In this document: positions 7,879 through 22,046 of the stretch, one piece after another | How positions within the stretch are numbered: position 1 is the stretch's first letter | How the letters are laid out: the number at the start of each line of letters is the position of its first letter | Source: a virus | Lineage: Duplodnaviria > Heunggongvirae > Uroviricota > Caudoviricetes | DNA: 22,046 nt | Strand: one strand, 5' to 3' | IMG/VR virus record: IMGVR_UViG_3300023707_000001 | Notes under the pieces: generated by a model | What the model saw: the letters and a program-made list of their open reading frames with translations, nothing else | Databases searched by the model: none | Told to the model about the DNA's origin: nothing | Program-made: the position numbers and the translations under genes

Positions 7879-7905
7879 GGTTATTGACTCCTATTCTCTA
7901 TTTGC

Positions 7906-8082
7906 TTATGCTGCCGTATCCTTTTCGATAACGATTGCATTCTCGTCATCCAGGAACACTACGCAGCCTGTACGCTTACTGCCATCTTTTTTGTACCAGC
8001 CATATGCATTCTCTTTGGACACCGAGATGACATATTCATCCGGCATATGTTCCAGAATCTCACGTAAGTCTCTTACTTTCAT
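7906..8082 (-). CDS. Small phage-type protein, 58 aa, MKVRDLREILEHMPD..., ends -DTAA
   Basis: Not in ORF track; hand-translated; RBS AAGGTG; fills the gap between neighbours. Confidence 0.8.
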   Translation of the reverse strand: MKVRDLREILEHMPDEYVISVSKENAYGWYKKDGSKRTGCVVFLDDENAIVIEKDTAA

Positions 8083-8102
8083 ATTCTATCACCTTTTTCG
8101 CC

Positions 8103-8699
8103 TTAATACCAGATATTTTTATATTTCTGGTATTCTTCCTTACGTTTTTTCTCTTCCTCTTCCGCCATTCTTACAGCCTTTCGGCTTTCTTCCATCATAG
8201 TTATCTTATGAATTGCCTGAACGTCACGATAAGCATCGTAATATCTGTCCATCGGCGTTTCTCTAAGCTCCCGCCCACAGAACTCTCTTTCCACATAACT
8301 GTTTATGGCGTCCAGCTGTTCCTGTGGCGTGCCGTATGAATCAGAAGTGTTGTGGTTCTCCCGCAGACCAGCTAACTTGCATTTTCTTATGATAAAATTC
8401 CTGAAGCCATCAAGAGTTTCTTTATACATACGCTCACCATAGAAAGAGACGCAAGTGTCAACCATTGCATTTGCAAGGACTGTCTCCTCACTCCGCGTGA
8501 ACATTCTTCCGTATGGTACAGCAACATATTTCGGGGTGCATCTTCCGTACAGTCTGTCCTCAAAGAAATCAATCTTTACTGGAGCGTCAGGAAAAGGACG
8601 GATAATACCTTCTTTGAGTTCATTCTTTGTTGGCTTTTTTGGTCTATTGATTCTTTCCGGGTCTATGCCAAGCAGCATACTCAAAATCGTATCAAGCAT
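8103..8699 (-). CDS. Hypothetical protein, 198 aa
   Basis: ORF track; RBS GAAGGGAAG. Confidence 0.8.
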   Translation of the reverse strand: MLDTILSMLLGIDPERINRPKKPTKNELKEGIIRPFPDAPVKIDFFEDRLYGRCTPKYVAVPYGRMFTRSEETVLANAMVDTCVSFYGERMYKETLDGFRNFIIRKCKLAGLRENHNTSDSYGTPQEQLDAINSYVEREFCGRELRETPMDRYYDAYRDVQAIHKITMMEESRKAVRMAEEEEKKRKEEYQKYKNIWY

Positions 8700-8717
8700 C
8701 TATTGACTTCCCTTCAC

Positions 8718-8948
8718 TTACAGATTTTTGAATTCTTCTTTGTCTTTCGCAACTTGCTCGCTGAACACGCCTGCGATAGTCTTTCTCATCTCAGGGGCAA
8801 GTTCCATCTGTGTATCTCTGGAGAACCCTACACCCTTAACGATTATCTCTGCCGGGGTGTTTCCATTATTAAGCCCTTTGATAAGTTTTTCCATTTCACA
8901 AATGCGCATCATAAGCGTCTTTGCTGTTTCAAATTTTTCCTCTGTCAC
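8718..8948 (-). CDS. Small phage-type protein, 76 aa (MTEEKFETAK...EEFKNL)
   Basis: GTG start with AAGGA RBS; helix-strands-helix pattern common in phage early regions. Confidence 0.75.
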   Translation of the reverse strand: MTEEKFETAKTLMMRICEMEKLIKGLNNGNTPAEIIVKGVGFSRDTQMELAPEMRKTIAGVFSEQVAKDKEEFKNL

Positions 8949-9492
8949 GTTCCTTTTTCCCCTTCCGCATGATTTTCATCTGCTTCCACATTTCTTTAAG
9001 TGTTATGCCCCAATGGCCTTCGTAGTCATAACCACAAATATTTAACTTGGTGATAATACAGGTCATAACACTGTCGCCCATCTTGGGCAGGCGCATTAAT
9101 TCCGCCGGCGGCGTGTCGTAAATGTCTTTTATATCGAGAAAGCCATTTCTTTCCAGGACATTTCTGGCCCGCGTATTCATCCGGCCACCAAACATCTTCT
9201 CCACAGAGAAGTTTAAGCGCGCAGGAGTTCTCACGCGCAAAGGGGTACTCTTTTCTTTTGACTTCTCTGCAGCAATTTCGAGCCGGCCAGTCAACAAATG
9301 GGTCAATGCATAAGGAGCATCTATCCATTTTTCATTCGGCACATCATAGATTTGAAGGCCGGAATCTAAGAACCTGCTCTTTACATAGCTGTCTCTTTCT
9401 GTGTCGAACAGAATTACGTCTTCACCAAGCTCCTTGCCGTATATAGCGGCAATTGTAGCCATCTTATTTTCTGCCATGCTAATCGTCCTCAT
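8929..9492 (-). CDS. Protein with C-terminal RNA polymerase alpha-subunit CTD-like domain, 187 aa
   Basis: SVEKMFGGRMNTRARNVLERNGFLDIKDIYDTPPAELMRLPKMGDSVMTCIITKL follows the alpha-CTD pattern (S.RA.N.L...GI..I.DL......L......G......I...L). Confidence 0.75.
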   Translation of the reverse strand: MRTISMAENKMATIAAIYGKELGEDVILFDTERDSYVKSRFLDSGLQIYDVPNEKWIDAPYALTHLLTGRLEIAAEKSKEKSTPLRVRTPARLNFSVEKMFGGRMNTRARNVLERNGFLDIKDIYDTPPAELMRLPKMGDSVMTCIITKLNICGYDYEGHWGITLKEMWKQMKIMRKGKKERDRGKI

Positions 9493-9493
9493 C

Positions 9494-10369
9494 TTAAATC
9501 AGCTTGTAACAACTCTCCAAACTGCCGGCGCCTCCCAGGAAGCCATTGGCATGTACAAAGATACCATCACTGATACCGGCAGCTTCATTGAGTTCTTCAT
9601 CGCGAAGTCCGCAGAAGCGCAAAGACTGAATAACCTCCATCTTACCAGGCTTATTGATACCACGGATTTTGTATCCGCCACCTTTTTCGTCGGGGAACGT
9701 AATGAACAGAATTCTTTCTTCCGGCGTATGTTTTTCATTCCAGCGCTGACATTCTTTTACGCCGTTGGTCATATAGTGTGGGAAGTTTACGATACCGTCT
9801 TTTGCATTCTGCAGCGCCTCAATACATTCCTCATGCTCCTTTACCACCTTGCGGGCATCAAGAATCATACGGTGTACAACAACCTGCGTAATATCCACGG
9901 CGCCCAGGAAAAATTCGTCCTGGTCCTCACTGTAAATATCATCGCAGTTGAGCCAGGCAATGTATTCAAAAGGACTATCCGTGAGACTGTCCTTCTTTAC
10001 ATCCTGGCCGTTATCTTTTGCCTGCAGGGTATACAACCCTTTGTCGAGAAGAAACTTTACTTCTTCGGCCAGAAGCTTGCCATCCGCAACGCACTGGTCC
10101 AAAACCAGACCCAGCGCGCTCTTCAGGATGCCGTTATCTGCATATTTGTATTCATCTGTTTTGTGCTCTGGCTGGTGATGGTCAAATTCTCCGCAGCCGA
10201 CATCGATAAGCGTATATCCGCGGGCGGCAAGTCTTCCCTGCGTTTCCGCATCCCGCTGGCTCACTCGCTCAATCCGGATATTCTCTCCGTAGAGTTCCTT
10301 AATAAAGGCCACACTTACTACATCGTCCGCGTGAAATACTCCGCTATGAACAGCAATCTTTTCAAACAT
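9494..10369 (-). CDS. myg1: MYG1 (UPF0160) family metal-dependent nuclease, 291 aa
   Basis: Signature motifs AVHSGVFHADDV, IDVGCGEFDHHQ, QAKDNG and GLRDEELNEAAGISDGIFVHANGF. Confidence 0.9.
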   Translation of the reverse strand: MFEKIAVHSGVFHADDVVSVAFIKELYGENIRIERVSQRDAETQGRLAARGYTLIDVGCGEFDHHQPEHKTDEYKYADNGILKSALGLVLDQCVADGKLLAEEVKFLLDKGLYTLQAKDNGQDVKKDSLTDSPFEYIAWLNCDDIYSEDQDEFFLGAVDITQVVVHRMILDARKVVKEHEECIEALQNAKDGIVNFPHYMTNGVKECQRWNEKHTPEERILFITFPDEKGGGYKIRGINKPGKMEVIQSLRFCGLRDEELNEAAGISDGIFVHANGFLGGAGSLESCYKLI

Positions 10370-10396
10370 ATTCTCGTTTCTCCTCTTCTTGTTTTA

Positions 10397-11062
10397 TTAT
10401 ACATACATTTTGCCAAGATTCCAATAGTGCTCTTTATCCCAGTTCTCAACTGCCTTTACTGATGCTTTCCATTCGGCTTCATACTCTTTTGCCTTTTCCC
10501 AGACGTCCTCCTGTAAAGACTTATATCCTTTTACAATATTGAACTCATCCATGATAAAGTCCAGTTTGTTTTCACTCCACCACATATCGCAGCACAGGCA
10601 AAAGCGTTCCTCGGGCATAACTGTATTTTCCATCCCGAGTTCTCTGTAAAGCGAGACAGTTTCCTGAACAACTTCGAGAAACCCAGTATAAGGAGACCTG
10701 TATAAGGTATCCTTGTATTCATTCAGGAGGGTGTCATACCGTAATGGGTCTTCATTGTACTCATTCTTAAGAGTATCCAATATGTCTGTAAATATCTTTG
10801 CGTGCTGCAGTAAGTCATAACTAAAGCAGAGCCTAGCAACAACATCCCATAACGTTTCATATCCTATTTTCTGTAGATAGGTCTTTGTTTCTTCAAACTG
10901 AAAAGGAATGTCACAGACTCTTACCTCTTGCATTTCCAGAGGGTACAACTTTCCTCTTAATGGAAGACATGATAGAAGAAACACATCAAAATGTTTCCGC
11001 GCCTGTGCATGAATAAACGCCTTAATCTTTTGCCACAAACTAAGTTCTTTGATTTTTACCAT
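10397..11062 (-). CDS. Hypothetical protein, 221 aa
   Basis: RBS AGGAG; ORF track. Confidence 0.8.
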   Translation of the reverse strand: MVKIKELSLWQKIKAFIHAQARKHFDVFLLSCLPLRGKLYPLEMQEVRVCDIPFQFEETKTYLQKIGYETLWDVVARLCFSYDLLQHAKIFTDILDTLKNEYNEDPLRYDTLLNEYKDTLYRSPYTGFLEVVQETVSLYRELGMENTVMPEERFCLCCDMWWSENKLDFIMDEFNIVKGYKSLQEDVWEKAKEYEAEWKASVKAVENWDKEHYWNLGKMYV

Positions 11063-11079
11063 GACTACTCCTTTTGCTA

Positions 11080-11658
11080 TTAAGCTGCCTGCTTTTCTTT
11101 GAGAAGGTTCTTGACGATACGGCCGGCTTTTAAGATATAATGCGCAACCAGGTCGTTTTCGCAGATTTCTTTTACCTCGAACTCGGTATCGGGGAATCTG
11201 TAAGAAACCGCAAAGTCAACCGTTTCATTGATGTGGTAATTGCCACACCACCACATTTCATTGTGGTCACCAAAGTGTACTTCCTCCTGATAGTAGGTAT
11301 CAAGCACTTCTTTATAAAACGGATGCGAGAAGGTCGTCCAGGTTTCGTCTTTCTTCAAAACCTTGAAGCCAAAGCGCAGATACTTTTCCTCTGCGTCAAA
11401 ATGACCATTCATATCATGGATAAGGAAGCCTTCTTCCATATCCTTCTTTTTATCGAACAGGTGTGGGGCAATTTCATACAGGTCGATTGCCAAATGATTG
11501 TAGCGCACCATCCCAAAGACATATTCGTACTTTCCGGAAATATATTCCTGGGTGTGTTTGTAGCTAACCTTTTCCATTGGGCGCGCAACATCACCCAGCA
11601 CTTCCTTAATATCACGGCCGTCTACACAAGTCATCATCTTCTGTATAAAAACGCTCAT
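11080..11658 (-). CDS. Hypothetical protein, 192 aa, ends -KQAA
   Basis: RBS AGGAAG; ORF track. Confidence 0.85.
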   Translation of the reverse strand: MSVFIQKMMTCVDGRDIKEVLGDVARPMEKVSYKHTQEYISGKYEYVFGMVRYNHLAIDLYEIAPHLFDKKKDMEEGFLIHDMNGHFDAEEKYLRFGFKVLKKDETWTTFSHPFYKEVLDTYYQEEVHFGDHNEMWWCGNYHINETVDFAVSYRFPDTEFEVKEICENDLVAHYILKAGRIVKNLLKEKQAA

Positions 11659-11661
11659 GCT

Positions 11662-11826
11662 TTACGACTTCCTTTCTTCTTCAGTGTTATTGTGCTTACT
11701 TTTATAGAACCTTACACATACCTCACCAACTGCCCAGAGCAAGACTTTTAACAGGTCGTTATCCGAGCAATCCCAAAGGAAGTGCTCCACATCTCTTTTG
11801 GTTATCGGGCGCTCATTTTTCATCAT
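11662..11826 (-). CDS. Small hypothetical protein, 54 aa (MMKNERPITKRDVEHFLWDC...)
   Basis: Not in ORF track; overlaps the end of the upstream gene and fills the gap to the next; RBS weak. Confidence 0.6.
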   Translation of the reverse strand: MMKNERPITKRDVEHFLWDCSDNDLLKVLLWAVGEVCVRFYKSKHNNTEEERKS

Positions 11827-12088
11827 TTTTCAGCGACTGCTCACGGAATACGCAGGTTTTTGCAAATGCTTTCATTTTCTGTTTCTTTAAGAACTTAATG
11901 AAGTCCTGTTTATCAACAGAGAATCCGAACGTGCCGTTTTCAATGAGTGCAATTACGATATCATCGCCCGCCACTTCTTCTGCATTCTTTATAGCGGTAT
12001 TACAGTTGACTGCTCTTTGCAGCTGGTATCTTATATCCCTTGCTGCACTTAAGGAGTCTGCATTCTGTTTCTGCTCAATATTTTCCAT
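11813..12088 (-). CDS. Hypothetical protein, 91 aa
   Basis: RBS AGGAG; shares GFSVDKQDFIKFLKKQK motif with 12125..12448. Confidence 0.8.
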   Translation of the reverse strand: MENIEQKQNADSLSAARDIRYQLQRAVNCNTAIKNAEEVAGDDIVIALIENGTFGFSVDKQDFIKFLKKQKMKAFAKTCVFREQSLKNDEK

Positions 12089-12124
12089 AACAATTTTCTC
12101 TCCTTTTTACATGTACTGTAAACG

Positions 12125-12448
12125 TTACCTAATGAATTCCTCTGTGATTTCGGCTGCCTCTTTCAGGTAGTCCTCTTTCTGAGCTTTTAAGAACTCAATC
12201 AATTTCTTCCGTTCAACCGTCACTCCGATCATTTTCCAATCGCCGGTTGCAGTAAACTTGCCGTGTTTCTCTGTATAGAGCGTTGCATCAGTAGACCAGT
12301 CTTTATTGGCGTCAATGGCTATTGTCAGTTCCCGGACCCTTTTCATAATATTCCTGAGGCGTTCCTGCTTTCTTTTTGCGTCCAGAAGTGTCACATCCAT
12401 CTCAGTGACCACCCTGTCAACAGCTTCCATCTTTTCTTCAAGTGTCAC
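12125..12448 (-). CDS. Hypothetical protein, 107 aa
   Basis: GTG start, RBS GGAGGTG; motif GVTVERKKLIEFLKAQK. Confidence 0.8.
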   Translation of the reverse strand: MTLEEKMEAVDRVVTEMDVTLLDAKRKQERLRNIMKRVRELTIAIDANKDWSTDATLYTEKHGKFTATGDWKMIGVTVERKKLIEFLKAQKEDYLKEAAEITEEFIR

Positions 12449-12454
12449 GTTACT

Positions 12455-12820
12455 TCACCTCCGCGCGCATAAATTATAATCACAATATTCTGACGGCTTT
12501 CTATTCTTAGGCCGCTCTTCCTGTAGTATATATATATACTTAACTCCTGTATCATTCTTTTCTACTGCCTCTTTAACATACTGTACAATATAAGAAGCAA
12601 GTTTATCTGCATGGAAGTACATCCAGTATTCAAAGGTTAATTCTTCTTCGAGAACCATGTTTCTCTTACTGTATTCTTCCTGCAGTCTCTTAATGATATA
12701 GTCCTCATCCACAAAAGTGTGCGCATGCTTTAATCCGACGACCGTCACACCTTCTGTTGTCAGCTCAAAGGCCACGATGCCGTCTTCTCTGAAATCTTCC
12801 CAATCAAATTCATACATCAT
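12455..12820 (-). CDS. Hypothetical protein, 121 aa, paralog of 13291..13722
   Basis: Shared FDWxDF, YIxxRL and WMYxHADKLAS motifs. Confidence 0.85.
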   Translation of the reverse strand: MMYEFDWEDFREDGIVAFELTTEGVTVVGLKHAHTFVDEDYIIKRLQEEYSKRNMVLEEELTFEYWMYFHADKLASYIVQYVKEAVEKNDTGVKYIYILQEERPKNRKPSEYCDYNLCARR

Positions 12821-12836
12821 ATAGTCTCTTCCTCTT

Positions 12837-13253
12837 TTAAGCTACTGAAAATCTGCCGTCCTTCTTCTCTTTCTTAATCTGCCGGAGCTTATCCTTCATC
12901 TCATTTACAGTGGTAATCCAGCGCATTTCGTAATCGTACCCATGGGCTTTTAATACATACAGGGTATGGTCAATGCTTGACAGGGTAAGTTTTTCCAGCC
13001 AGACCATCTTTTCGGGCGGATAGTTATATATGTCTTCCAGGTTTTTACAGCCTACTGCATAAAACCTTTTGCTGAGCTCTGGAGCAAGCGTTGGGTTGTT
13101 CTGCATTTTTTGCTTCAGGCTGCCACTTAACTTCGGCAGGTTACTGGCAAGCTGTTTCTTTGCGAGCAGCTTATCAATTTCGGCGCGCAGATTTTTAAGC
13201 GATTCTATATCCATACTCTCCAGATTGATATTAACAGTTAATGTATAAGACAT
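12837..13253 (-). CDS. Second alpha-CTD-like protein, 138 aa, with N-terminal coiled helix
   Basis: GCKNLEDIYNYPPEKMVWLEKL...LKAHGYDYEMRW aligns by eye with GFLDIKDIYDTPPAELMRLPKM...LNICGYDYEGHW of 8929..9492; RBS AGGAG. Confidence 0.65.
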   Translation of the reverse strand: MSYTLTVNINLESMDIESLKNLRAEIDKLLAKKQLASNLPKLSGSLKQKMQNNPTLAPELSKRFYAVGCKNLEDIYNYPPEKMVWLEKLTLSSIDHTLYVLKAHGYDYEMRWITTVNEMKDKLRQIKKEKKDGRFSVA

Positions 13254-13290
13254 AGCTCTATATATTCTCCTTCTTATTCTTCTTACTTAC

Positions 13291-13722
13291 TTAATGCATG
13301 ATAAGCTTTATATTCTCATTCTCTTTCCGCACCTTAAAGCCCTTGGGCATTCTCGGCCACGGAATTTTGCTCGCGGGTGTATAGAGACATACCTTATCTG
13401 CATACCATACATCTTCTTTCGAGTCCAAGTACAGGCCCTCGTTAATGTATCTCCAGATAAGAGAAGCGAGCTTGTCTGCATGCTTATACATCCACTTCTC
13501 AAGGCTCAGGTCACTTTCTCCTTCTCTCTCGGCATAGTCATAGCTCAAGCGCTCAAGAATATACTCTTCGCCTCCATAGGTTCCCATACCTTTTGCGCAG
13601 ATGCCGAGTACAGGTTTATCTTCATCCTCTACATTGCAGAGAACAACCGCCTCTACTCCGTACTTTTCAAAGTCTCTCCAGTCAAATGCCATATTCTCTG
13701 CCATAGTCTTAACTTCTGCCAT
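13291..13722 (-). CDS. Hypothetical protein, 143 aa, paralog of 12455..12820
   Basis: RBS AGGAG; shared motifs as above. Confidence 0.85.
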   Translation of the reverse strand: MAEVKTMAENMAFDWRDFEKYGVEAVVLCNVEDEDKPVLGICAKGMGTYGGEEYILERLSYDYAEREGESDLSLEKWMYKHADKLASLIWRYINEGLYLDSKEDVWYADKVCLYTPASKIPWPRMPKGFKVRKENENIKLIMH

Positions 13723-13747
13723 TTTATATCTCTCCTGTCTTATTCAA

Positions 13748-14512
13748 TCATTCATCTGTCTCGATAAGCAATGGCTCTGATTTTACCGCGATGTAACACC
13801 AGCACCAACTGCTGTACCGGAACTCAAGGCCATTTCTATATTTGCGCGGCGGCTCGTTTTCATAGTGTCCGCTGCAACATTTCCATACGTTCTTAACAAT
13901 CTCTTTTACAGTCTTATCTTCCGTACTATCAATATAATAGTCCGAGATAAACTTCTGTTCCGTAATGTGGTCATCACTCGGCGCCTCCGTATTATGCCAC
14001 TTGAACATAACCGTAACCAGATACTTAGCGCTCTTATTGTAGTTATCTTCGTTGATGCAGCTTAACTGATGCCGATGAGGTTCACTAAGCTGGTGAAAAG
14101 AACCTTCGTACTCTGCCATGTGTTCAATATAATATATCTGTTCCTTATCGGACAGCTTCGAGAACGCTTCCAGGAATATATCTACATCAGCAAGTACATA
14201 GTATGGCATTCTTCCACAGACATGCCGGGCTACGCCCTGGAACTCTTCATTCCAGTTGTCTCTAACCATCCGATAGAAGAACTGCTTTCTCGTCATCTTC
14301 TCCGGCGCAGTCTTACTGCTATTCTTTACCGCGCGCTGCTTTTTGTATGCGTGTGGCTCAAACTCAACCCAGACTGTATCTAATAAACCTGAGTCTCTTA
14401 CACGCTTAACACTATAGCTTTCAGGGATGTTATCCTTATTCTTCATGCTACCTTCCACATCTTTGTTGGGGTCGCACTTGGCCAGTTCGCGTATCAGTTC
14501 ATATACCTTCAT
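13748..14512 (-). CDS. Modular hypothetical protein, 254 aa, N-terminal MKVYELIRELAKCDP phage module; first gene of the left operon
   Basis: RBS AAGGAAGGTG; directly downstream of the sigmaA-like promoter. Confidence 0.85.
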   Translation of the reverse strand: MKVYELIRELAKCDPNKDVEGSMKNKDNIPESYSVKRVRDSGLLDTVWVEFEPHAYKKQRAVKNSSKTAPEKMTRKQFFYRMVRDNWNEEFQGVARHVCGRMPYYVLADVDIFLEAFSKLSDKEQIYYIEHMAEYEGSFHQLSEPHRHQLSCINEDNYNKSAKYLVTVMFKWHNTEAPSDDHITEQKFISDYYIDSTEDKTVKEIVKNVWKCCSGHYENEPPRKYRNGLEFRYSSWCWCYIAVKSEPLLIETDE

Positions 14513-14596
14513 CAGTATACACCTTCCTTGCTTATCTCTCTATCTCTTTATTCAATCTCTCTAATCTTACTAACGTATTCTTAATCTACCTAACAT

Positions 14597-14626
14597 AATA
14601 TACACGGATAACCACCTCATTGTCAA
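14597..14626 (-). promoter_or_regulatory. sigma70/sigmaA-type promoter driving the left gene block
   Basis: Minus strand TTGACA (14626-14621), 18-nt spacer, TATATT (14602-14597); AT-rich upstream; about 85 nt before the ATG at 14512. Confidence 0.75.
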
Positions 14627-14746
14627 GTAAGGGGTGTATAAAAATCTCAAGAACTTGTAATTAAGGAAAAATAAATCGGTATTAGGGTACTTCTCCTTAC
14701 CGTTCAGAACAATCTTTTACATGCCTCGGTGCAACCTCGCTCCAAA

Positions 14747-15314
14747 AAATTTGTCAAAAACTTACCTCTTTTTCTTTACGCTCTAACTCGTCTACCTCCA
14801 GCATTATCAAGGGGATAACTCGGATACTTGCCTGCGGCAACGGACTCTACATAGCATGCTACAACAAGGGGAAGGATAGAGGAACAAGGAACACGATAGA
14901 GGGGTAAAAGACACTATAATAATGGGGCGGACTAGGTACATCAATAGAATTAAAGCGATAATATAACGCTTTTTGAAAAACGGAGCTTGAATCGTACCTC
15001 ATCGAATCTCCCCTGTATGGGCCAAATTAGCCTCATATGAAGCTCCAATTTCCTTGTGGCACTTTTTAAAAATTATCCTGCTATCGTCGCGCTACGTTAA
15101 AGATAACGGGTGTAGCGGGCGTTTTGGAACTAACTTTTTACAAATGCCACTTCGAAAATCTGTATTTCAGATGTGTCTGGCGTTTTTGGTTTGCCTTCCG
15201 CAAATTTGTCCGCAAAATCCAGTTCAGAAATTTTGCTGGTGGACTGCAGTAAAAAATTTGTCCCGGAGTTTTCAAAAATCTGCACCGCGAAAAATTTGTC
15301 TTGCAAAATTTGTC
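14747..15314 (+). repeat. AAATTTGTC 9-mer x5 (14747, 15202, 15254, 15292, 15306), all same orientation
   Basis: Read directly; related AAAATCTG variants lie between them. Confidence 0.8.
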
Positions 15315-15517
15315 CAAAGTGTAAACCTGTCTTTCAAAAAGTATTATTTTCCCTATAGGGGAGAATATATCTTTTTCTTGAATTTCGTTCACTTGTATTT
15401 TTATTGTAATACTTGTGTACTCTTTCTATGGACTTGGTTTACAGATTTATATTTTATTAATTTTGCGCTTCGCGTTTTGGTTTTTGCTCCTGGGTATGTC
15501 AGGCAAAGATACGTGTG

Positions 15518-16346
15518 CTGCGCTCACAAGGTTCAAGTAACCGTTCTTAGCACACTTGTTGTATTGCGGGCTCGCTTACGCTCGCCCGCCTGAAGCCCTA
15601 AATTATATGGCTCTTTATGTGTATATTGGTATATATATATCGAACAGCACTCCTATATATGGGGAGTGTGTAGTATATATATGTATATCCTGTTAGAGGT
15701 GTGTGTGAATGATATAATTAATATATGCATAAAGAACGATACAATTTGCGCGCCGGAGGTCGCGCGCGGGTAGTAGCGGGCGGAGTATGTGAATACTCTT
15801 TCTCCCCTTGCGGTATAAAGAGGGGAATATATATGGGGATATATATTTGTATATACACGAGAAGGGAGAAATGGGATAATTCTGTATCCAGTAGATAGGG
15901 AATTTACTTGGGACAGAATGATGTAACGCCCTTTTGTAGTGTTTAACGGGGCTCGCTTCGCTCGCCCCTTGATAAGGACATGACTTAATATCTTTTATTT
16001 TATTTAAGATATTGTCATTGTCTTATCTTTTTTGATTTAATATACTTTGAACTACTTTTACTGTTCCTGTAAAAGTTTGTATCTTAAATCTTTTTTCTTT
16101 CTTGTTTTCTTTTTTGTCTTATTTTATATACGCTCGCTACGCTCGCTTTTTTAAACAAGCTCTATTTATTTCTTTTTTTTAGCTTGTTATTATGCTCGCT
16201 CGCTTCGCTCGCTCGCTTGTATATATAAATAAGCTCTTTATGTTCTTTATCTTAACCTTTATGTTTGTCTTATCTTTGTTTTGCTGATAAGACTGCGCTC
16301 ATAAGGTTTTGCTAACCGAATACAGTCTATCTGCGCTCATAAGGTT
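15518..16346 (+). repeat. 16-bp direct repeat CTGCGCTCAYAAGGTT x3 (15518-15533, 16293-16308, 16331-16346)
   Basis: Two identical copies 38 bp apart and one with a single mismatch. Confidence 0.9.
15566..16216 (-). repeat. Four GCGAGC-GNA/GNNA-GCGAGC ssDNA hairpins (15566-15589, 15948-15968, 16132-16146, 16194-16216)
   Basis: Plus strand shows GCTCGC direct repeats; the minus strand can fold each with tandem G.A pairs and loops GTAA, GAA, GTA, GAA. Confidence 0.8.
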
Positions 16347-16349
16347 AAG

Positions 16350-16628
16350 CTAAATCCCTGGAGCCAATTTAGCGGGCGGTGCCTTAATCCCTCCCGAGGG
16401 GTAGGTATGGGGACGGCCATGGATAAGTCCTGGGCGGAAATCCTTCGGGCACTTATCAGCCTTTTTACCCATGAGATAAGTAAGTGGTCTTTCTTCTTGT
16501 TTATGGGTGGGGAAGGGGCTGGTATTTTTACAGGCGTTTGTGACATAAGCTATGTTTCTTGAATATGTCATATTTCTGGAAGCGTTTGTTTTGTATAGCT
16601 TGCTTAAATATGTCACAATAGTTACCAT
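16350..16628 (-). CDS. Possible hypothetical protein, 92 aa (doubtful)
   Basis: AAGGAGTGAG upstream but spacing is long; sequence is not protein-family-like. Confidence 0.35.
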   Translation of the reverse strand: MVTIVTYLSKLYKTNASRNMTYSRNIAYVTNACKNTSPFPTHKQEERPLTYLMGKKADKCPKDFRPGLIHGRPHTYPSGGIKAPPAKLAPGI

Positions 16629-16667
16629 GGTGCTTATCTCACTCCTTTCGTAAGCATGAATTTCGGA

Positions 16668-16805
16668 TTAGGATTTACGGGCGCGCGCTTTTTGCTGTTC
16701 GCCTTTTAGTCTTCTGATTTCGCGCTCGTCCTTTTCAACTTCTATTTCGATAAACTGGTTCACTTCAGAACCTAACTCGAATAAGGCAAACAATAAAGCA
16801 AATAT
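16668..16805 (-). CDS. Possible 45-aa peptide with non-canonical ATA start (hydrophobic N-terminus, charged tail)
   Basis: AAGGAGG (16820-16814) lies 8 nt before an in-frame ATA; the track's 16901 start crosses a terminator. Confidence 0.45.
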   Translation of the reverse strand: MFALLFALFELGSEVNQFIEIEVEKDEREIRRLKGEQQKARARKS

Positions 16806-16830
16806 AACGGTATCCTCCTTTGAGTAACTT

Positions 16831-16868
16831 ATAAAAACAATCCGCCCGCCAAAAAAATAGCGGACGGA
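16831..16868 (-). terminator. Intrinsic terminator closing the right gene block
   Basis: Minus strand UCCGUCCGCU/GGCGGGCGGA 10-bp stem (two G.U) followed by UUGUUUUUAU, just after the 16883 stop. Confidence 0.8.
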
Positions 16869-16882
16869 CGTTTCTTTACTTA

Positions 16883-17617
16883 TCAGGCACAAGCAGTCCA
16901 ATCAGACTTGGAACTGCCTTTGGAGCCGAAGAGCAGACCGCCAATGTCGGAGCCCAGACCCTTTACTTCATTCCAGGCATCCTGAACATCCTTGTTGCGG
17001 GAAAGCTCACGGGCGGCGGCACGGCCATTGCGGATAGTCGTTGCAAGCGTTGCGGCGCCAACAGAAACTGCGGCGGTGGCCACAACACGGCCCGTGGTCA
17101 TACCAGCATTTACGACTGCACCAGCCGTCGGTGCAAGTGCGCCATTCAGGGCATAGTCAGCAACATCCGTTGCAAACGTGGTGACGGCTTTTGCTACCGC
17201 CTGCGTACGGTCAGACCAGAGCTTGATGTTCGCTTTGCGCTGGATAAGCTGTAAATCCTCTGCGGAAACACCCGAGAGGATAACCGTCTTACCGCCATCG
17301 CTGGTTTCATAGCTGTCTTCATAGCCGAGGCTGTCGAGCAAATCCAGCAGGTTGTTCGCTTCCTGACGGGATTCAAACTTCTTGCTGAACTTATCCTGCA
17401 GAACCTCTCCCGTTTCATTGTCAATCGTCGTCACATTCTCTTTACTCATCTTTTCTTCCTCCTGTACGTCTTTTGTAATCTCTGCGTCCTCGATTTTTTC
17501 CTGTGGCGGTTCTTCTTTCAGGTCTGGACCAAGCATTGCTTCCAGAGTACCGCCCAGGAAATCGAGAACAGGGTCATTTGCCCCCTGGGCAGTTGTTTTG
17601 TCTTTTTCGGTTGCCAT
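16883..17617 (-). CDS. 244-aa protein, acidic N-terminal half and Ala/Gly/Thr/Val-rich C-terminal helices, ends -ACA
   Basis: RBS GAGGAGGG; strongly biased codon use. Confidence 0.9.
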   Translation of the reverse strand: MATEKDKTTAQGANDPVLDFLGGTLEAMLGPDLKEEPPQEKIEDAEITKDVQEEEKMSKENVTTIDNETGEVLQDKFSKKFESRQEANNLLDLLDSLGYEDSYETSDGGKTVILSGVSAEDLQLIQRKANIKLWSDRTQAVAKAVTTFATDVADYALNGALAPTAGAVVNAGMTTGRVVATAAVSVGAATLATTIRNGRAAARELSRNKDVQDAWNEVKGLGSDIGGLLFGSKGSSKSDWTACA

Positions 17618-17649
17618 ACAAAATCCCTCCTCAAGGGGCTGTTACCTTA

Positions 17650-17943
17650 TCAAGCGGCAATCGGCATAACCGCGTCTTCGATAAGGTGGTAATCATAACT
17701 GACCTCTACCCTGTACAGGGAACGGAGAGCGAAACGGCTCTTTGTGCACGGTGTACGAAGCAGGTGCATAACCTCGGGGTCAATCAGACCATATGCGTCA
17801 ATGCAGGTCTGCGGAATTTTGGCGGAAATATTTACCCAGCCATTCGTAAGGTTCTTACGAAGCGTCCAGGTTACTTTGGAATTGGCGCGGTTGTTGGATT
17901 TCGGGAATACGATATATTTCGGGCATACTTTATTCATAATCAT
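17650..17943 (-). CDS. Hypothetical protein, about 97 aa, ends -PIAA
   Basis: Track 17650..18015; AAGGA/GGAAAG precede ATGs at 17943 and 17937. Confidence 0.7.
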   Translation of the reverse strand: MIMNKVCPKYIVFPKSNNRANSKVTWTLRKNLTNGWVNISAKIPQTCIDAYGLIDPEVMHLLRTPCTKSRFALRSLYRVEVSYDYHLIEDAVMPIAA

Positions 17944-18015
17944 TTTTCTTTCCGTCCTTTCTTGACGACAAAAACTGGACTGCCCGCCTTGAGCAGTCCA
18001 GCCTGTTTCATTCAC

Positions 18016-18960
18016 TTATGCGGCAAAGTCGAAACCTGCGGATTCTTCCTGCGGTTCTGCAACAGCCTCCATGTCGCCGACGAATTCTTCATTGCGGTTC
18101 TTGGCGTCCTCAATGATAATCGTCTGGTTGGCGATGGACAAGAGGTCACGGGCGGTTTCCTGTTCGGAGCCTGCCTTGATTTCCCGCTCTACCACGAGGT
18201 TGCCGTTAGCCTTAACCAGCTTATGCTTGCCATTGAGCTTGAAGCCCGAAGCAAGCGTGATGCGGTAGTTGCGCCCTTTGTGCATGGTGGAAGCCAAACC
18301 TTTCACGAAGGTCAGTTCCATGTTTTCCATGTCGAGCGGAAGGTTGTAGCGGGTTTCCCAGCCAAAGATGGAGCTGTGGCCCATAACGCGTACGGACTTA
18401 AACTTCTGTTTTGCGTCCTGGAGCATTTTGAATACCGTGCCTGCCGTTGCCATGTAGGCCTGACCATATTTCGCGCTGTTGCGTTCATCGTTGATATGTT
18501 CCTTTTCTGCAGGCGTCAGCACGGTGTTGTCACCCTTGTTGATGCGGGAGAGCATACCACTAAGACGGCGGGCCTCAAAGTCGTTGACATAAAGAACCAG
18601 ATGTTCCTTGCCATAGGTTTCGGCCTTGGCAATAGCCTTGCTGGCGCCGATAAGCGTAGCAACGGGAGCCGACAGACGCTCACCAGATTTGGTATTTACT
18701 GCAGGGCAAACCAGCGCGGGTTCTACGATGTTCTCTGCGATATCGCCTGCTACGAAGCCAACATAACCACGGGAGGAAACAACCGACATGATGACGGTGT
18801 TGTTCTTGAGCTCTTCTTCGCGTTTTGCGCGGGCCTTGTCAGTCAGGATATTTACTGCTTCCATCTGCTTGGAAAGACCTGCGAGCATTGCGGCGCGACG
18901 GGATACCGGTGCCTGAGCCTGTTCTTTTACGATTGCGTTTACATTTACATTGGTTGCCAT
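18016..18960 (-). CDS. 314-aa protein, possible catalytically degenerate RNase H-like fold, ends -DFAA
   Basis: Start reassigned to ATG 18960 (RBS AAGGAG). CDS itself is well supported; the fold call rests on ATLIGASKAIAKAETYGKEHLVLYVND and KFKSVRVMGHS only. Confidence 0.85.
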   Translation of the reverse strand: MATNVNVNAIVKEQAQAPVSRRAAMLAGLSKQMEAVNILTDKARAKREEELKNNTVIMSVVSSRGYVGFVAGDIAENIVEPALVCPAVNTKSGERLSAPVATLIGASKAIAKAETYGKEHLVLYVNDFEARRLSGMLSRINKGDNTVLTPAEKEHINDERNSAKYGQAYMATAGTVFKMLQDAKQKFKSVRVMGHSSIFGWETRYNLPLDMENMELTFVKGLASTMHKGRNYRITLASGFKLNGKHKLVKANGNLVVEREIKAGSEQETARDLLSIANQTIIIEDAKNRNEEFVGDMEAVAEPQEESAGFDFAA

Positions 18961-19124
18961 AATTATCATTCTCCTTTTCTTGCCCCGCTCATTTATTAGC
19001 ATTTCGCTTTGGCGGGATACATGTTAACATTTCTGGACGCGCTGTCCTTCTGGGTAGGGTATACGATGAAAGGATAATCCAGCTGTAGCTGTAGGACGGG
19101 ACAGGTTGACAGGCATGAATTATT

Positions 19125-19153
19125 AGTATATAGCCTGTATGTCCGAGGTCCAA
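19125..19153 (-). promoter_or_regulatory. sigmaA-like promoter upstream of the 18960 gene
   Basis: TTGGAC (19153-19148), 17-nt spacer, TATACT (19130-19125); A/T tract at UP-element distance (19163-19177). Confidence 0.55.
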
Positions 19154-19162
19154 ATCCCTCAT

Positions 19163-19193
19163 AAAAAACAAGACAATCGTCTGCGGAGCAGAC
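19163..19193 (+). promoter_or_regulatory. Hairpin element A: AAAAAACAAGACAATC-GTCTGC-GGA-GCAGAC
   Basis: One of three intergenic copies with conserved flank and covarying 6-bp stem; function inferred. Confidence 0.7.
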
Positions 19194-19321
19194 AAGCTCT
19201 TGATGAGAGGGTAGCCGTGGCTGTAAGATTTAAGCCTTTCGTTGTATGCTGAAAAGTGATAGGGGGCACTCTTTAGCACACAACGAAGAGCTTAATGCTC
19301 CTCGTTTGCCAAGGTGGGGAT

Positions 19322-19585
19322 TTATGCGGCGACTTTAGCCTCCTCGCTAAGAGCCACGAGGTCGTTGAAAGTCGTGTTATCGGTAAAGAAGATGGTTTCA
19401 CCATAGTCGGTTTTCAGGCGGGCGGCGATAACCAGCTCGCCATCACGGGTATCCTTGCGGATGGTATCCAGCTTGTCATGGCTGACACTGTGGAAGCTGT
19501 CGCACAAAGTAGTCAGTCTGTGCGCATTGATGTGACGGTGATACGTACCAGGAAATAACGTTTCGATATCACTGCAAAATAACAT
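19322..19585 (-). CDS. Hypothetical protein, 87 aa, ends -KVAA
   Basis: RBS AAGGAG with 9-nt spacer. Confidence 0.85.
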   Translation of the reverse strand: MLFCSDIETLFPGTYHRHINAHRLTTLCDSFHSVSHDKLDTIRKDTRDGELVIAARLKTDYGETIFFTDNTTFNDLVALSEEAKVAA

Positions 19586-19611
19586 GATGATTAACTCCTT
19601 TACTGTTCAAT

Positions 19612-19683
19612 CAATAAAAAATAGGCTTCCCAGCGAGAAAGTGAAAAGCATGGGGGATGTTTTCAGGGGATTACCGGGAAGCC
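19612..19683 (-). terminator. Long stem-loop plus U-tract in the leader of the 19585 gene (attenuator or small-RNA terminator candidate)
   Basis: GGCUUCCC/GGGAAGCC outer stem, inner UGAAAACAU/AUGCUUUUCA hairpin, then UAUUUUUUAUU. Confidence 0.5.
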
Positions 19684-19684
19684 C

Positions 19685-19717
19685 AAAATAAACAAGACAA
19701 TATCGCCCGAAGGGCGA
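19685..19717 (+). promoter_or_regulatory. Hairpin element B: AAAATAAACAAGACAATA-TCGCCC-GAA-GGGCGA
   Basis: Same flank and register as A and C. Confidence 0.75.
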
Positions 19718-19791
19718 AGAGGGTGTATCGACGGAGACGGCACTATCCAGACAAGAGGATATTATCCTGCGGCGTCTCTATCGAGAATTTA

Positions 19792-19959
19792 TCACGCGGC
19801 GATTTTGTAGCCGGCGTATTCTTTTTCTTCCGCAAGCCGTTCGTAATCACGGCGGGTCATTTTCCGCTTTGCGCGGTCACGGATACGACGCTCCTGCCCC
19901 TCGCTGTGCATACGATTGTGTTTGCGGATTTTTTCAATATTTGCATTGGTATTCAACAT
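19792..19959 (-). CDS. Small very basic protein, 55 aa, ends -KIAA
   Basis: Track 19792..20031; AAGGCAGG precedes the ATG at 19959 (MLNTNANIEK). Confidence 0.75.
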   Translation of the reverse strand: MLNTNANIEKIRKHNRMHSEGQERRIRDRAKRKMTRRDYERLAEEKEYAGYKIAA

Positions 19960-19981
19960 GATTAACAACCTGCCTTTCTTA

Positions 19982-20155
19982 TCAGCGCATATTCTTAGCC
20001 ACGGCATAGAATACGACTGCACCGGTTGCAATCACGTCTACTGCCTGGCCCATTACGTTTCTGGCTTCCTGGCTTATCTTCTGCCTTCGCGCCAGAATAC
20101 TTTTATCGTCTGCCGCAATACCATTTCCAAAATACCAGTTCAACAGTTTCTTCAT
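19982..20155 (-). CDS. Small protein, 57 aa (MKKLLNWYFGNG...VVFYAVAKNMR), hydrophobic C-terminal helix
   Basis: Not in ORF track; RBS AAGGGAG; hand-translated. Confidence 0.7.
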   Translation of the reverse strand: MKKLLNWYFGNGIAADDKSILARRQKISQEARNVMGQAVDVIATGAVVFYAVAKNMR

Positions 20156-20214
20156 ATTCCCAATCTCCCTTTATCATTTATCTTGTTATTCCGTAAGGCG
20201 ACAGACTGCTCGGG

Positions 20215-20631
20215 TCAGGCCGCCTTGTTATTCATTTCATCGATGTCTTCTTTGGAAACGAAACTTCCAAAGGGCTTTTTCTCGCTTGTCTCCTGTGCCT
20301 TCGGCTTCTCCTTGTACTTGGCACATACCGACTTGAGCTCGCCTTCCAGGATGTTGAGCGTGCTCTTGCCCAGCTCGAACAGTGCTTTTGCCGTTGCACC
20401 CAGACTCTTGACGAGGTGGCTGTTGCGGATTGCGATATCCATGATGTCGCAAGTGGAGAACTCATTGAAGGCCAGCGTAACCGTAGCTTCGCCGCGCATA
20501 TGGTTTACGGAGAAGCGGACAGGGCCTGTTACCTCGTAGTGGTCATCGCGGCCGAAGGCCTGGTTGTAGGCCTTGTGCAGTTTCTCTATGGTTGCCATTT
20601 CGTTTTTCGTGAAGTTCATTTTAATTTCCAT
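20215..20631 (-). CDS. Hypothetical protein, 138 aa, ends -NKAA
   Basis: Start reassigned to ATG 20631 (RBS AAGGAG). Confidence 0.85.
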   Translation of the reverse strand: MEIKMNFTKNEMATIEKLHKAYNQAFGRDDHYEVTGPVRFSVNHMRGEATVTLAFNEFSTCDIMDIAIRNSHLVKSLGATAKALFELGKSTLNILEGELKSVCAKYKEKPKAQETSEKKPFGSFVSKEDIDEMNNKAA

Positions 20632-20678
20632 GGTTTTCAATCTCCTTTTTTCAACAAACAACAAACAAAACAAAAAAA

Positions 20679-20822
20679 TTAAGCCGCTTTGCGGGCGGCT
20701 TCTTCCTGGGTATTCGGTTTTGCCTTGCGGGCTACAAGCTCCAAGGCTTTCTTGATTGCTTCGGCCCGTTCAAACCGGGTACGAGTGTCGCCCCATTCAA
20801 TCGAGATGTACGTCTTTTTCAT
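20679..20822 (-). CDS. Small basic protein, 47 aa (MKKTYISIEWGD...EEAARKAA)
   Basis: Not in ORF track; RBS AAGGAG with 8-nt spacer; hand-translated. Confidence 0.75.
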   Translation of the reverse strand: MKKTYISIEWGDTRTRFERAEAIKKALELVARKAKPNTQEEAARKAA

Positions 20823-20861
20823 AATAAACGCTCCTTTCACAATGCGTCCTTAAACCATCTC

Positions 20862-20894
20862 AAAATAAACAAGACAATATCGCGCGAAGCGCGA
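20862..20894 (+). promoter_or_regulatory. Hairpin element C: AAAATAAACAAGACAATA-TCGCGC-GAA-GCGCGA
   Basis: Same flank and register as A and B; contains GCGAAGC. Confidence 0.75.
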
Positions 20895-20901
20895 AATGGC
20901 A

Positions 20902-21054
20902 TTACCTTCTATAGCCGTAGGGTTTCTTCTTGGGCTCACTGCTCGTGAACAGGCCCTTAATGCAATCTATCACAAGGGAAATGATTCCCCATGCGATGAG
21001 CGCGGCAACAGAACAAAAGGCGGCAAAGAACATGCCAACAATGATAATTTCCAT
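20902..21054 (-). CDS. Small membrane protein, 50 aa (MEIIIVGMFFAAFCSVAALIAWGIISLVIDC...KKKPYGYRR)
   Basis: Not in ORF track; GGAGG with 7-nt spacer; long hydrophobic helix plus basic tail. Confidence 0.8.
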   Translation of the reverse strand: MEIIIVGMFFAAFCSVAALIAWGIISLVIDCIKGLFTSSEPKKKPYGYRR

Positions 21055-21068
21055 TTGATAACCTCCTC

Positions 21069-21461
21069 TTATGAAGCACGGCGTGCAGTGGGCCGGCGAA
21101 GGGATTCGAAGATGGCATGAACAGTCATGCGGGCGGCCATGCGCGCGTCATCACACGGTACAGCCTTACCGCCGGCAAATACAGTAAGCGGACTCCCCTG
21201 CGGTTTATCTTCCGCATCGAAGTCCGTTACCATGCGGCCGTTTTTCATCAGCCAGCAGTATGCAGTTTCTCCCGTAAGCACATCTTTATACTTAACGGAA
21301 CAGCCATGTTGGGATACCACCTTCCAGCGGTCAAAGGAACCGGGCAGGTATTTATGGATAACCATTTCAAACGCCAGCGTTGCAAACTTAACGGGCGTTA
21401 CTTCCCAGTTTGGGACTACCACAACGTTGTCACGGATGATTTTGAGTGCATACTTTTTCAT
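21069..21461 (-). CDS. Hypothetical protein, 130 aa
   Basis: RBS AAGGAAG; ORF track. Confidence 0.8.
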   Translation of the reverse strand: MKKYALKIIRDNVVVVPNWEVTPVKFATLAFEMVIHKYLPGSFDRWKVVSQHGCSVKYKDVLTGETAYCWLMKNGRMVTDFDAEDKPQGSPLTVFAGGKAVPCDDARMAARMTVHAIFESLRRPTARRAS

Positions 21462-21480
21462 AGCAAATCTTCCTTTCTGA

Positions 21481-21912
21481 TTACGCTACACTCGTTTCCT
21501 CTGGATAAATAGGCTCTCCGCTCCATGTTTTCCAGAGGTACGGATATTCCTTGCGGATTTTGGACATAGGCAGACTGATATGCCGGAAGTCCTTTTGGCG
21601 GACTCCCTTATAGGCAGACCATACCGTGTGGTTGATACCAAAGTATTCCAGTAGCCGGCTCATCCTTTCTGTCATGTAAAATGACATGTCCGTAGCGACG
21701 TATTCACGGAGCCAGCCACTAAATTCCCTTGCGTCGAAACTTATGGCAAAGTGACCCACTTCAGTTTCTGCAATACTGTTTCCTGCAAACGTAGGCGCGC
21801 TACATTCATCCATCACTATATTGCATACTTCCAAAGCAAGTTCGGTGGAGCAGAGTCCTGTCATCGAGCCACGCTCTTCATTGAGTTTGTTTCTTAATTC
21901 ATCTTTTGTCAT
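21481..21912 (-). CDS. Hypothetical protein, 143 aa, ends -TSVA
   Basis: Start reassigned to ATG 21912 (RBS AAGGAG). Confidence 0.8.
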   Translation of the reverse strand: MTKDELRNKLNEERGSMTGLCSTELALEVCNIVMDECSAPTFAGNSIAETEVGHFAISFDAREFSGWLREYVATDMSFYMTERMSRLLEYFGINHTVWSAYKGVRQKDFRHISLPMSKIRKEYPYLWKTWSGEPIYPEETSVA

Positions 21913-22045
21913 TGTGCATACTCCTTTGCTCTTCACACTGGGCAAGCGCCATTTCAATCAGTTCGTTTTGGGACATACTCTCCTGATAGGGGAACACACC
22001 ATACCAGCTGGCGGCGTAATTCATACAGTTCAGCTCTTCTTTTCG
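21899..22045 (-). CDS. 3' end of a gene entering from the right edge (...YAASWYGVFPYQES...MHNDKR)
   Basis: Only this minus frame stays open from the edge and overlaps the next start. Confidence 0.6.
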   Translation of the reverse strand, partial: RKEELNCMNYAASWYGVFPYQESMSQNELIEMALAQCEEQRSMHNDKR

Positions 22046-22046
22046 C

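Follow-up and report, generated by a model that had tools for sequence, protein, structure and literature searches.

Motif Sites in the Window

The DNA studied here is a stretch of 22,046 nucleotides (nt; the whole stretch is called the window) from an uncultivated gut jumbo phage (IMG/VR record IMGVR_UViG_3300023707_000001; 235,547 bp, G+C content 44.5%, CheckV completeness 96%, 13 transfer RNA genes and a transfer-messenger RNA gene). It corresponds to the reverse strand of genome positions 157,106-179,151. Toward its high-coordinate end the window contains three copies (sites A, B, and C) of a repeated intergenic element in which a short GC-rich hairpin is followed by a T-rich box. The genes around these sites all lie on the window minus strand. 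A first-pass annotation of this DNA, made from the letters of the window, had proposed that the three hairpins are promoters of the type used by the virion RNA polymerase of phage N4. Comparison with related phages leads us to a different proposal, namely that the element may be a promoter module for an RNA polymerase of another fold that this phage encodes. The features of the locus are as follows.

18016-18960, minus strand: gene for a 314-amino-acid (aa) protein, downstream of site A
19158-19193, minus strand: site A; stem GTCTGC, loop TCC, stem GCAGAC (19193-19179), spacer GA
19176-19158, minus strand: box of site A, TTGTCTTGTTTTTTATGAG, about 200 nt upstream of the conserved 314-aa gene
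19322-19585, minus strand: 87-aa gene, the first gene downstream of site B
19613-19683, minus strand: long hairpin upstream of the 87-aa gene; 10-bp stem GGCTTCCCGG/CTGGGAAGCC, loop of about 40 nt, then a T-run
19682-19717, minus strand: site B; stem TCGCCC, loop TTC, stem GGGCGA (19717-19703), spacer TA
19700-19682, minus strand: box of site B, TTGTCTTGTTTATTTTGGG
20672-20701, minus strand: canonical intrinsic terminator after the 47-aa gene; 7-bp stem, 7-nt loop, long T-run (L003 8451-8471)
20679-20822, minus strand: 47-aa gene, the first gene downstream of site C; no Pfam or PHROG family
20859-20894, minus strand: site C; stem TCGCGC, loop TTC, stem GCGCGA (20894-20880), spacer TA
20877-20859, minus strand: box of site C, TTGTCTTGTTTATTTTGAG

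Read on the gene (sense) strand, the element begins with a perfect 6-bp GC-rich stem around a C-T(T/C)C-G triloop and continues, after a short spacer, into a rigid 19-nt T-rich box, TTGTCTTGTTT-N4-TGAG, in which N4 is mostly T and the end varies as TG(A/G)(G/A). The template strand reads the same loop as C-G(A/G)A-G; on the plus strand of the window, the C-G-closed loops of sites A, B, and C are GGA, GAA, and GAA. Direct re-reading placed the three hairpins at the positions and with the stems (GTCTGC/GCAGAC, TCGCCC/GGGCGA, TCGCGC/GCGCGA) that the first-pass annotation had given, each between minus-strand genes that are templated by the plus strand. The conserved flank that it had noted is real and longer than it had claimed, extending over 19 nt to the TG(A/G)(G/A) end. 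The sequence AAACAAGACAAT has three exact occurrences on the plus strand of the window and no others, compared to about 0.003 expected by chance according to our own arithmetic, and the C of GACAAT is 12 nt from the loop center at all three sites.

Site C begins 7 nt past the stop codon of a 50-aa gene, and its box ends about 22 nt upstream of the ribosome-binding site and 36 nt upstream of the ATG of the 47-aa gene. As the first-pass annotation had stated, no sigma-70-type promoter was found downstream of site B or site C. A reading of the box itself as a sigma-70 -35 element was rejected: no consistent -10 element follows at 16-18 nt, and TTGAGA-17-TATAAT occurs at the first site of the genome in one relative only.

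Copies, Conservation, and Covariation

A search of the whole genome for further copies gave six in total, all on the gene strand. Three are in the window, two lie past its high-coordinate end (genome 155,853, site 1, and 156,435, site 2), and one is found at genome 195,562 (site 6), 36 kb downstream of the other five, which are clustered within 4 kb. With a weight matrix of the 22-nt flank these six sites score 25-31 bits, and the next best position in the genome scores 16.8 bits. Similarly, GC-rich 6-bp hairpins with a TTC or TCC triloop number just these six in 235 kb, with none in the opposite orientation. The coupling of hairpin and box is strict: each of the six best box matches comes with the hairpin, and each of the six GC hairpins with a TYC triloop comes with the box.

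Two related IMG/VR phages (211 and 224 kb; 314-aa protein 68% identical) contain eight copies each, seven of them syntenic and one elsewhere. Scans for exact 19-mers retrieved these two relatives from IMG/VR and, among 21 metagenome hits, three small contigs of the same clade, which add further orthologous sites and no new stem types. A looser pattern of box plus loop, scanned against viral contigs, was abandoned: it returned about 110 single chance matches and multiple copies only in the known relative.

Among the 22 sites in the three phages, a perfect 6-bp inverted repeat around a 3-nt loop, and with it the potential to fold, is present in 22/22. These sites use seven different stem sequences, in which all pairs are Watson-Crick and each of pairs 1-5 occurs as two or three pair types; the earlier observation that the stems differ yet stay paired thus extends to the clade. 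When the 3' arms were shuffled among the stems, 2 of 10,000 shuffles kept every pair. The closing C-G pair is invariant and the template-strand loop is either GAA or GGA (8 and 8 among 16 site variants), the central base being always a purine (A or G). Site C provides a concrete case. Its orthologues read TCGCCC-TCC-GGGCGA (L005) and TCGCGC-TCC-GCGCGA (L156), which combine a compensated stem change with a T/C toggle in the loop. Since the three versions of this site (TCGCGC-TTC, TCGCGC-TCC, and TCGCCC-TCC) each come with the matching 3' arm, the hairpin has been kept by compensated change. Judged from these comparisons of sequence, the hairpin structure is under selection.

The box follows a different rule. 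Its 19 nt are conserved in rigid register, with TGAG lying 16-19 nt past the stem, and because the stems drifted while the box stayed, the box sequence itself also appears to be under selection. Between stem and box the spacing is less strict: the spacer is 2 nt in 13 of the 16 tabulated site variants, 1 nt in one, and 4 nt in two. Copies of the site 2 type place AAG or AGG between the stem and the U-tract (spacer TAAG or TAGG). The fixed register between loop and flank described by the first-pass annotation therefore describes the three window sites correctly, at 12 nt, but not the family, in which the spacer varies from 1 to 4 nt.

The RNA Polymerase Encoded by the Phage

A search for the DxDGD motif identified an open reading frame (ORF) of 1100 aa on the plus strand at genome 147,702-151,004 (L145:7702-11004). 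The ORF shares the strand of the sites and precedes the first of them by about 5 kb. Protein-language-model features place this ORF nearest to Bacillota Atlas clusters with PF05183 (Pfam RdRP), and 38 homologues were retrieved in an exhaustive search. Across an alignment of 35 sequences, AGxDxDGDK and roughly 20 further positions do not vary. An AlphaFold model of the protein (predicted local distance difference test score 78, predicted template-modeling score 0.77) was compared with known structures: the 16 best Foldseek matches are all QDE-1 or plant RDR2, and VIA-align gives Z 17.8 for maize RDR2 (448 residues) and Z 13.4 for QDE-1 (441 residues), with beta-prime subunits of RNA polymerase next at about Z 8. 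The PF05183 profile has no match at E ≤ 10 in the whole genome, and a Bacillus control likewise stays below the cutoff; the kinship of the 1100-aa ORF with YonO and PF05183 is one of fold and motif only.

All other homologues are fused proteins of 1236-2164 aa with an N-terminal helix-hairpin-helix region. In the phage, the ORF directly downstream (622 aa, plus strand, genome 151,099-152,967, L145:11099-12967) carries Pfam HHH_3 and matches the N-terminal module of the fused homologues with an hhalign probability of 99.95 (E 1.6e-38). We assign to this phage a two-barrel RNA polymerase of the QDE-1/RDR2/YonO kind that is split into two ORFs in swapped order. The first-pass suggestion that the element serves a polymerase encoded by the same genome was right insofar as the phage does encode its own RNA polymerase, but the fold is two-barrel instead of N4- or T7-like. 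A gene for a PIF1-type helicase follows the split polymerase ORFs, and the same arrangement is found in the relative L147.

Searches of the genome with Pfam models for T7-like polymerases (PF00940), sigma-70 region 2, and beta-subunit domain 6 gave no matches; for PF00940 this is a weak negative, because the model matched in no control genome either. The genome also contains a set of giant ORFs:

genome 76,624-101,417, minus strand: three tandem giant ORFs of 2907, 3081, and 2234 aa

The 2907-aa ORF matches a giant PHROG annotated as "endolysin", and the 2234-aa ORF contains an HNH domain. As candidate virion polymerases these ORFs found no support: DKDGD is present in the 2907-aa and 3081-aa ORFs, yet profile comparisons detected no similarity to the polymerase family. 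In a weak test, none of the three matched a PDB entry with phmmer (the PDB includes the N4 mini-vRNAP) or a Pfam or PHROG polymerase.

A Linear Motif in Distant Relatives

Five contigs from more distant phages (L147-L151) encode homologues of the polymerase at 26-36% identity. Three of the contigs extend far enough past the polymerase gene to reveal what comes next, namely a block of small genes in one orientation, among them a gene for a homologue of the 314-aa protein (24-34% identity). Within this block, four of the contigs repeat a motif on the gene strand: L147 contains ten copies of AACTAATCGTTCYTTKTGAG (16566-23280), L148 seven copies of a AACTAATNGTT-N6-TGAG-like sequence (8544-11500), the G+C-rich L150 nine copies of GACTAGCGCTTCTATG (14668-19200), and L151 GACAAACGGTTnTTTT, of which three copies were seen (700-5620). 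No such motif was found in the 9.6 kb of L149. The motifs are 16-21 nt long and specific to each lineage, and they occupy the block that is syntenic to the site cluster of our phage. In L147, L150, and L151, one copy stands upstream of the homologue of about 315 aa, which matches the placement of site A. A gene for this homologue, with the motif ahead of it, adjoins the polymerase gene in all four distant lineages that were examined. The motif of L147 and L148 aligns with the 19-nt box without gaps, with 11/19 identical positions (G8, T9, T10, TTTTGAG).

The motifs of the relatives lack the upstream hairpin, so the signal cannot be a hairpin-dependent terminator there. The structure that does occur lies on the other side. 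When we folded 55 nt of sequence beginning with the G that comes after the motif, the first base was paired in about 20 of 27 cases (-11 to -24 kcal/mol). With 25 upstream bases included, 7/22 helices begin no more than 1 nt from that G, compared to 6.7% of 450 positions chosen at random. A transcript 5' end with a stabilizing hairpin is expected to look like this, with a helix flush against a fixed point that follows a conserved box of about 20 nt, and a processing site would look similar. We consider these motifs candidate promoters of the fused polymerases. They also bear on the start site. The first-pass annotation had predicted transcription to begin about 12 nt from the loop center (19174-5, 19698-9, and 20875-6); the relatives' motif and the RNA hairpins behind it point instead to the G of TGAG, about 26 nt from the loop center.

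A Proposed Promoter Module for the Two-Barrel Polymerase

The reading that we favor is that the repeated element is a promoter module for the phage's own polymerase, with an upstream hairpin that is specific to this clade; we give it a probability of roughly 45%. The 19-nt T-rich box would be the sequence-specific part, used by the two-barrel polymerase formed by the 1100-aa and 622-aa proteins, and the G of TGAG or a base adjoining it (window ~20861, 19684, and 19160) would be the start point. From the five modules at the head of the rightward gene arm and the one 36 kb further on, the polymerase would launch transcription of small genes, non-coding RNAs, and the 314-aa gene. Factor-independent phage polymerases use contiguous boxes of about 20 nt. 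The box of the present element is likewise contiguous, multicopy, intergenic, in rigid register, and co-oriented with the genes, and motifs of this kind travel with the polymerase family across the lineages L147, L148, L150, and L151.

The GC hairpin would then be a clade-specific addition that is conserved only in its pairing, its length of 6 bp, and its loop. It could act as DNA or as RNA. As DNA, the template-strand C-G(A/G)A-G mini-hairpin might mark or open the adjoining AT-rich box, as in the N4 promoters that are extruded by supercoiling; such a structural mark would explain both the G-R-A loop and the strict length. As RNA, the hairpin together with the U-rich box might form a leaky terminator that insulates each promoter from incoming transcription. 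We see about even odds between these two roles, and both may hold together.

A bolder version of the DNA role is that a two-barrel phage RNA polymerase, an enzyme with the cell-type fold, evolved, independently of N4, promoters composed of an extruded template-strand G-R-A mini-hairpin and a single-stranded recognition box. We regard this as rather doubtful. If true, DNA-hairpin promoters would be a convergent solution for factor-less polymerases that are unable to melt DNA, and the split enzyme of 1100-aa and 622-aa chains would lend itself well to studies of promoter finding by such polymerases.

Several observations weigh against the promoter module. The motif is tied to this particular polymerase by a single line of comparative evidence, its co-occurrence across lineages, and the gain of a hairpin in one clade implies a changed mode of recognition, which is not parsimonious. 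The similarity between the box and the relatives' motif falls largely within T-rich sequence, and over 13 nt the box is also identical to part of a U-rich stretch in L147 that comes after RNA hairpins; the homology assignment of the box is therefore not unique. The 5'-hairpin signature after TGAG is weak in the phage's own clade (5/12 sites). Nearest-neighbor folding of DNA finds the template-strand hairpin no better than the sense-strand hairpin; the special stability of GNA triloops is a matter of literature knowledge. The available RNA data are assembled contigs, which cannot show starts, and none begins at a predicted start. Finally, the five clustered sites pass a generic terminator scan (GC stem, at least 5 T in 8, 0-2 nt from the stem), and several sites lie 7-26 nt past a stop codon.

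Terminators and Transcript Data

The last two points lead to the explanation that competes most seriously with the promoter module. The sites could be plain intrinsic terminators, in which a 6-bp RNA hairpin and a U-tract punctuate small genes and non-coding RNAs, and in which the tail was kept through duplication of the cassette. Like intrinsic terminators, the element shows on the sense strand a GC stem-loop and then a U-rich stretch, often just past a stop codon. The scan calls each of the five clustered sites terminator-like on the gene strand, with starts 7, 24, and 26 nt past stop codons, and site 1 closes a GC-rich non-coding stretch of about 300 nt. The RNA stem-loops are stable and GC-rich. 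Two stem families reach 8 bp on the sense strand only, by way of a U·G wobble, and other terminators in these phages likewise have T-runs interspersed with G.

This explanation accounts poorly for what is conserved. Intrinsic release occurs 7-9 nt past the stem, whereas conservation extends 19 nt past it in rigid register. Compensated divergence of the stem next to a constant tail is the opposite of what a terminator requires, and loop, closing pair, and stem length are invariant here, whereas in the canonical terminators 300 and 200 nt away the loops measure 6 and 7 nt, the stems are longer, and a long T-run follows. The terminator after the 47-aa gene (20672-20701) exemplifies this ordinary form in the phage. 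In the copies of the site 2 type, AAG or AGG separates the stem from the U-tract, and the U-tract is weaker at sites with these non-U spacers. The genes downstream of sites B and C would be left without a recognizable promoter, and the relatives' counterpart has no upstream hairpin. A further argument that contrasts UUCG tetraloops in nearby RNA hairpins with the DNA-type triloops of the motif was not used, as several nearby GC hairpins can also fold as C-TTC-G triloops.

Transcript data add a modest contribution. Contigs of one metatranscriptome library, which covers 84% of the region, bridge all five clustered sites, and such read-through is weak evidence against efficient stops. These contigs break in an AT-rich gap with divergent promoters that the DNA sequencing runs do cover, which suggests that the library represents real RNA. 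As a test of starts and stops, the contigs gave no verdict: none starts or ends at a site. Separately, one metatranscriptome contig is joined to an Illumina adapter at window position 20168 (L003:8984), 13 nt before the ATG of a 57-aa gene; this junction may mark a frequent RNA end. Overall, we consider plain terminators less likely than the promoter module, but a serious rival to it and ahead of the remaining alternatives. If the sites were terminators after all, they would illustrate the ease with which a family of terminators comes to resemble N4 promoters on the other strand.

Other Explanations

The element could also be an RNA processing or stability signal, at which a host or phage endoribonuclease cuts in or near the U-rich box while the hairpin shields the upstream 3' end; for the relatives, this reading has the downstream 5' end shielded by the hairpin that follows their motif. 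Conserved intergenic processing sites are present in the early RNAs of phages T7 and SP82. The intergenic location on the sense strand, the conserved single-stranded U-rich stretch flanked by hairpins, and the relatives' hairpins at the G after the motif, which fit a cleavage product as well as a primary start, are consistent with this idea. What makes it improbable is that a specific site of 19-21 nt far exceeds the known preferences of RNases Y, E, and J, that stems of 6 bp are too short for RNase III, that the invariant loop would have no role, and that no candidate nuclease is linked to the motif.

The exact N4 model, which the first-pass annotation had favored, holds that an extruded template-strand hairpin is bound by an injected polymerase and that transcription starts about 11-12 nt from the loop center, inside TTGTC. 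In N4, the promoter hairpin has a 5-7 bp stem and a loop of G(-10), purine(-11), and A(-12) closed by C(-9):G(-13), and a G at -8 in the stem is contacted by the specificity loop of the polymerase (PMC4496689). The 6-bp template hairpins of our phage, with a G-R-A loop, C:G closure, and a central purine in 22/22 sites, fit this description, so the claim of an N4-type loop was justified; the -8G is not conserved, since the TCGCCC and CACCCC stems have C there and the remaining stems have G. The model is also favored by the clustering of the copies where an arm rich in small genes of unknown function begins, and by the presence of giant ORFs of unknown function. However, neither Pfam nor a phmmer comparison of the giant ORFs with the PDB revealed a T7/N4-like polymerase (a weak test), and a spacer of 1-4 nt misfits a start that is measured from the hairpin and falls inside a conserved box. 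Under this model, moreover, 16 conserved nt would be transcribed without any stated function, and the relatives' motif predicts a start at TGAG. We therefore view the exact N4 model as very improbable.

Least probable of all is a DNA site outside transcription (a primase or replication-initiation site, a nicking or packaging signal, or the target of a structure-specific protein): strand-specific GNA-type hairpins are known at single-strand initiation sites (general knowledge; review PMC13037366) and all copies lie on one strand, but five of the six are within 4 kb, each intergenic and just upstream of a gene or non-coding RNA, the relatives' counterpart is linear and gene-proximal, and nothing comparable exists elsewhere in the 235 kb. 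A small reserve of belief, below that given to RNA processing and above that given to the exact N4 model, is assigned to no reading.

Neighborhood of the Sites

Searches of Pfam and PHROG with the genes tested across the window returned almost no matches. Among GenBank phages, neither similar DNA nor a match to the 314-aa protein was found, and Rfam identified no family in the 12-kb region searched. The block that contains the motif sites (window 17000-22046) has a G+C fraction of 0.48-0.52, compared to 0.39-0.46 for window 1-17000. Repeats of the GAGCGTAGCG/GCTCGC type are present at window 15566-16216. Two distant relatives carry them as well (L147:22955-23418 and L151:9140-9630), again at the far end of this gene block, which makes the repeats a conserved trait of the phage group.

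The long hairpin at 19613-19683, for which a partial fold was computed, has as its first base the second base after the T-rich box of site B. It could be either a 5'-terminal structure or attenuator of the predicted transcript, a second terminator, or a small RNA. Two further structured stretches lie beyond the window. The GC-rich and ORF-free stretch of about 300 nt at genome 155,534-155,850 (L003:5534-5850), with many short GC hairpins, sits between the divergent AT-rich promoter region and site 1; it belongs to no Rfam family, and one RNA-library contig has its first base precisely at 155,534. Behind site 2 comes another structured stretch without ORFs, at genome 156,460-156,770 (L003:6460-6770), which has a canonical terminator at its end (11-bp stem, long T-run). 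If the sites are promoters, this stretch would be a non-coding RNA unit of about 290 nt. Just upstream of site 6, a gene at genome 194,731-195,537 (L004:4731-5537) encodes a 268-aa protein that ends in Ala-Ala and whose C-terminus weakly matches the Mor transcription-activator and HTH_7 families.

Comparison with Known Systems

How single-chain two-barrel phage polymerases such as YonO, gp66 of crAss-like phages, and their relatives recognize promoters is largely unknown. The outcome of our analysis is a candidate promoter family that covaries with the polymerase lineage and to which one clade adds a hairpin, conserved as structure only, that matches the N4 loop on the template strand. This family makes promoter recognition by the two-barrel enzyme class directly testable.

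The closest parallel in structure is N4. Its promoters P1-P3, used by the virion RNA polymerase (PMC4496689), share with the present element a GC-rich inverted repeat and a C:G-closed G-R-A loop on the template strand. In both systems the stem sequence is free as long as it is paired, the copies head a block of small genes, and the phage brings its own polymerase. The two systems also differ. The N4 polymerase has a T7-like fold instead of two barrels, conservation in N4 stops at +1, four to five nt past the stem, whereas here a 19-nt box follows, and N4 conserves -8G and starts 11 nt from the loop center, whereas here -8G is not conserved, the spacer is variable, and the predicted start is about 26 nt away.

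The closest parallel in the linear part of the signal is the Thermus phage P23-45, for which promoter motifs of the two-barrel polymerases gp96 and gp64 have been mapped (bioRxiv 10.1101/2022.12.01.518664). There, too, phage-specific contiguous and strongly conserved motifs occur in many copies, co-oriented with the genes and immediately ahead of the mapped starts, in a phage with single-chain two-barrel polymerases. The P23-45 enzymes are distantly related to the one described here, their starts were mapped by experiment whereas ours are predicted, and the P23-45 motifs have no hairpin component in that report, from whose text the word is absent.

YonO of the Bacillus prophage SPbeta has a single mapped start and an undefined promoter sequence (PMC5467207), and gp66 of a crAss-like phage produces early transcripts with no common motif (bioRxiv 10.1101/2020.03.07.982082). 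A hairpin with ATGGAGG, considered as the SPbeta P_YonO start, was dropped, as the published primers place the start elsewhere. The relatives' weight matrix does not single out the SPbeta start region either; TCATTTATGAGGG is present in the interval but not ranked. What YonO and gp66 share with the present system is the broad polymerase class and a promoter just downstream of the polymerase gene and before a non-coding RNA. They differ in that the enzyme described here is split into two ORFs in swapped order and that the Pfam RdRP model misses its 1100-aa ORF. Promoters of phage-encoded polymerases are known as such; the new element, if our reading is correct, would be the hairpin-plus-box architecture and its association with a split two-barrel polymerase.

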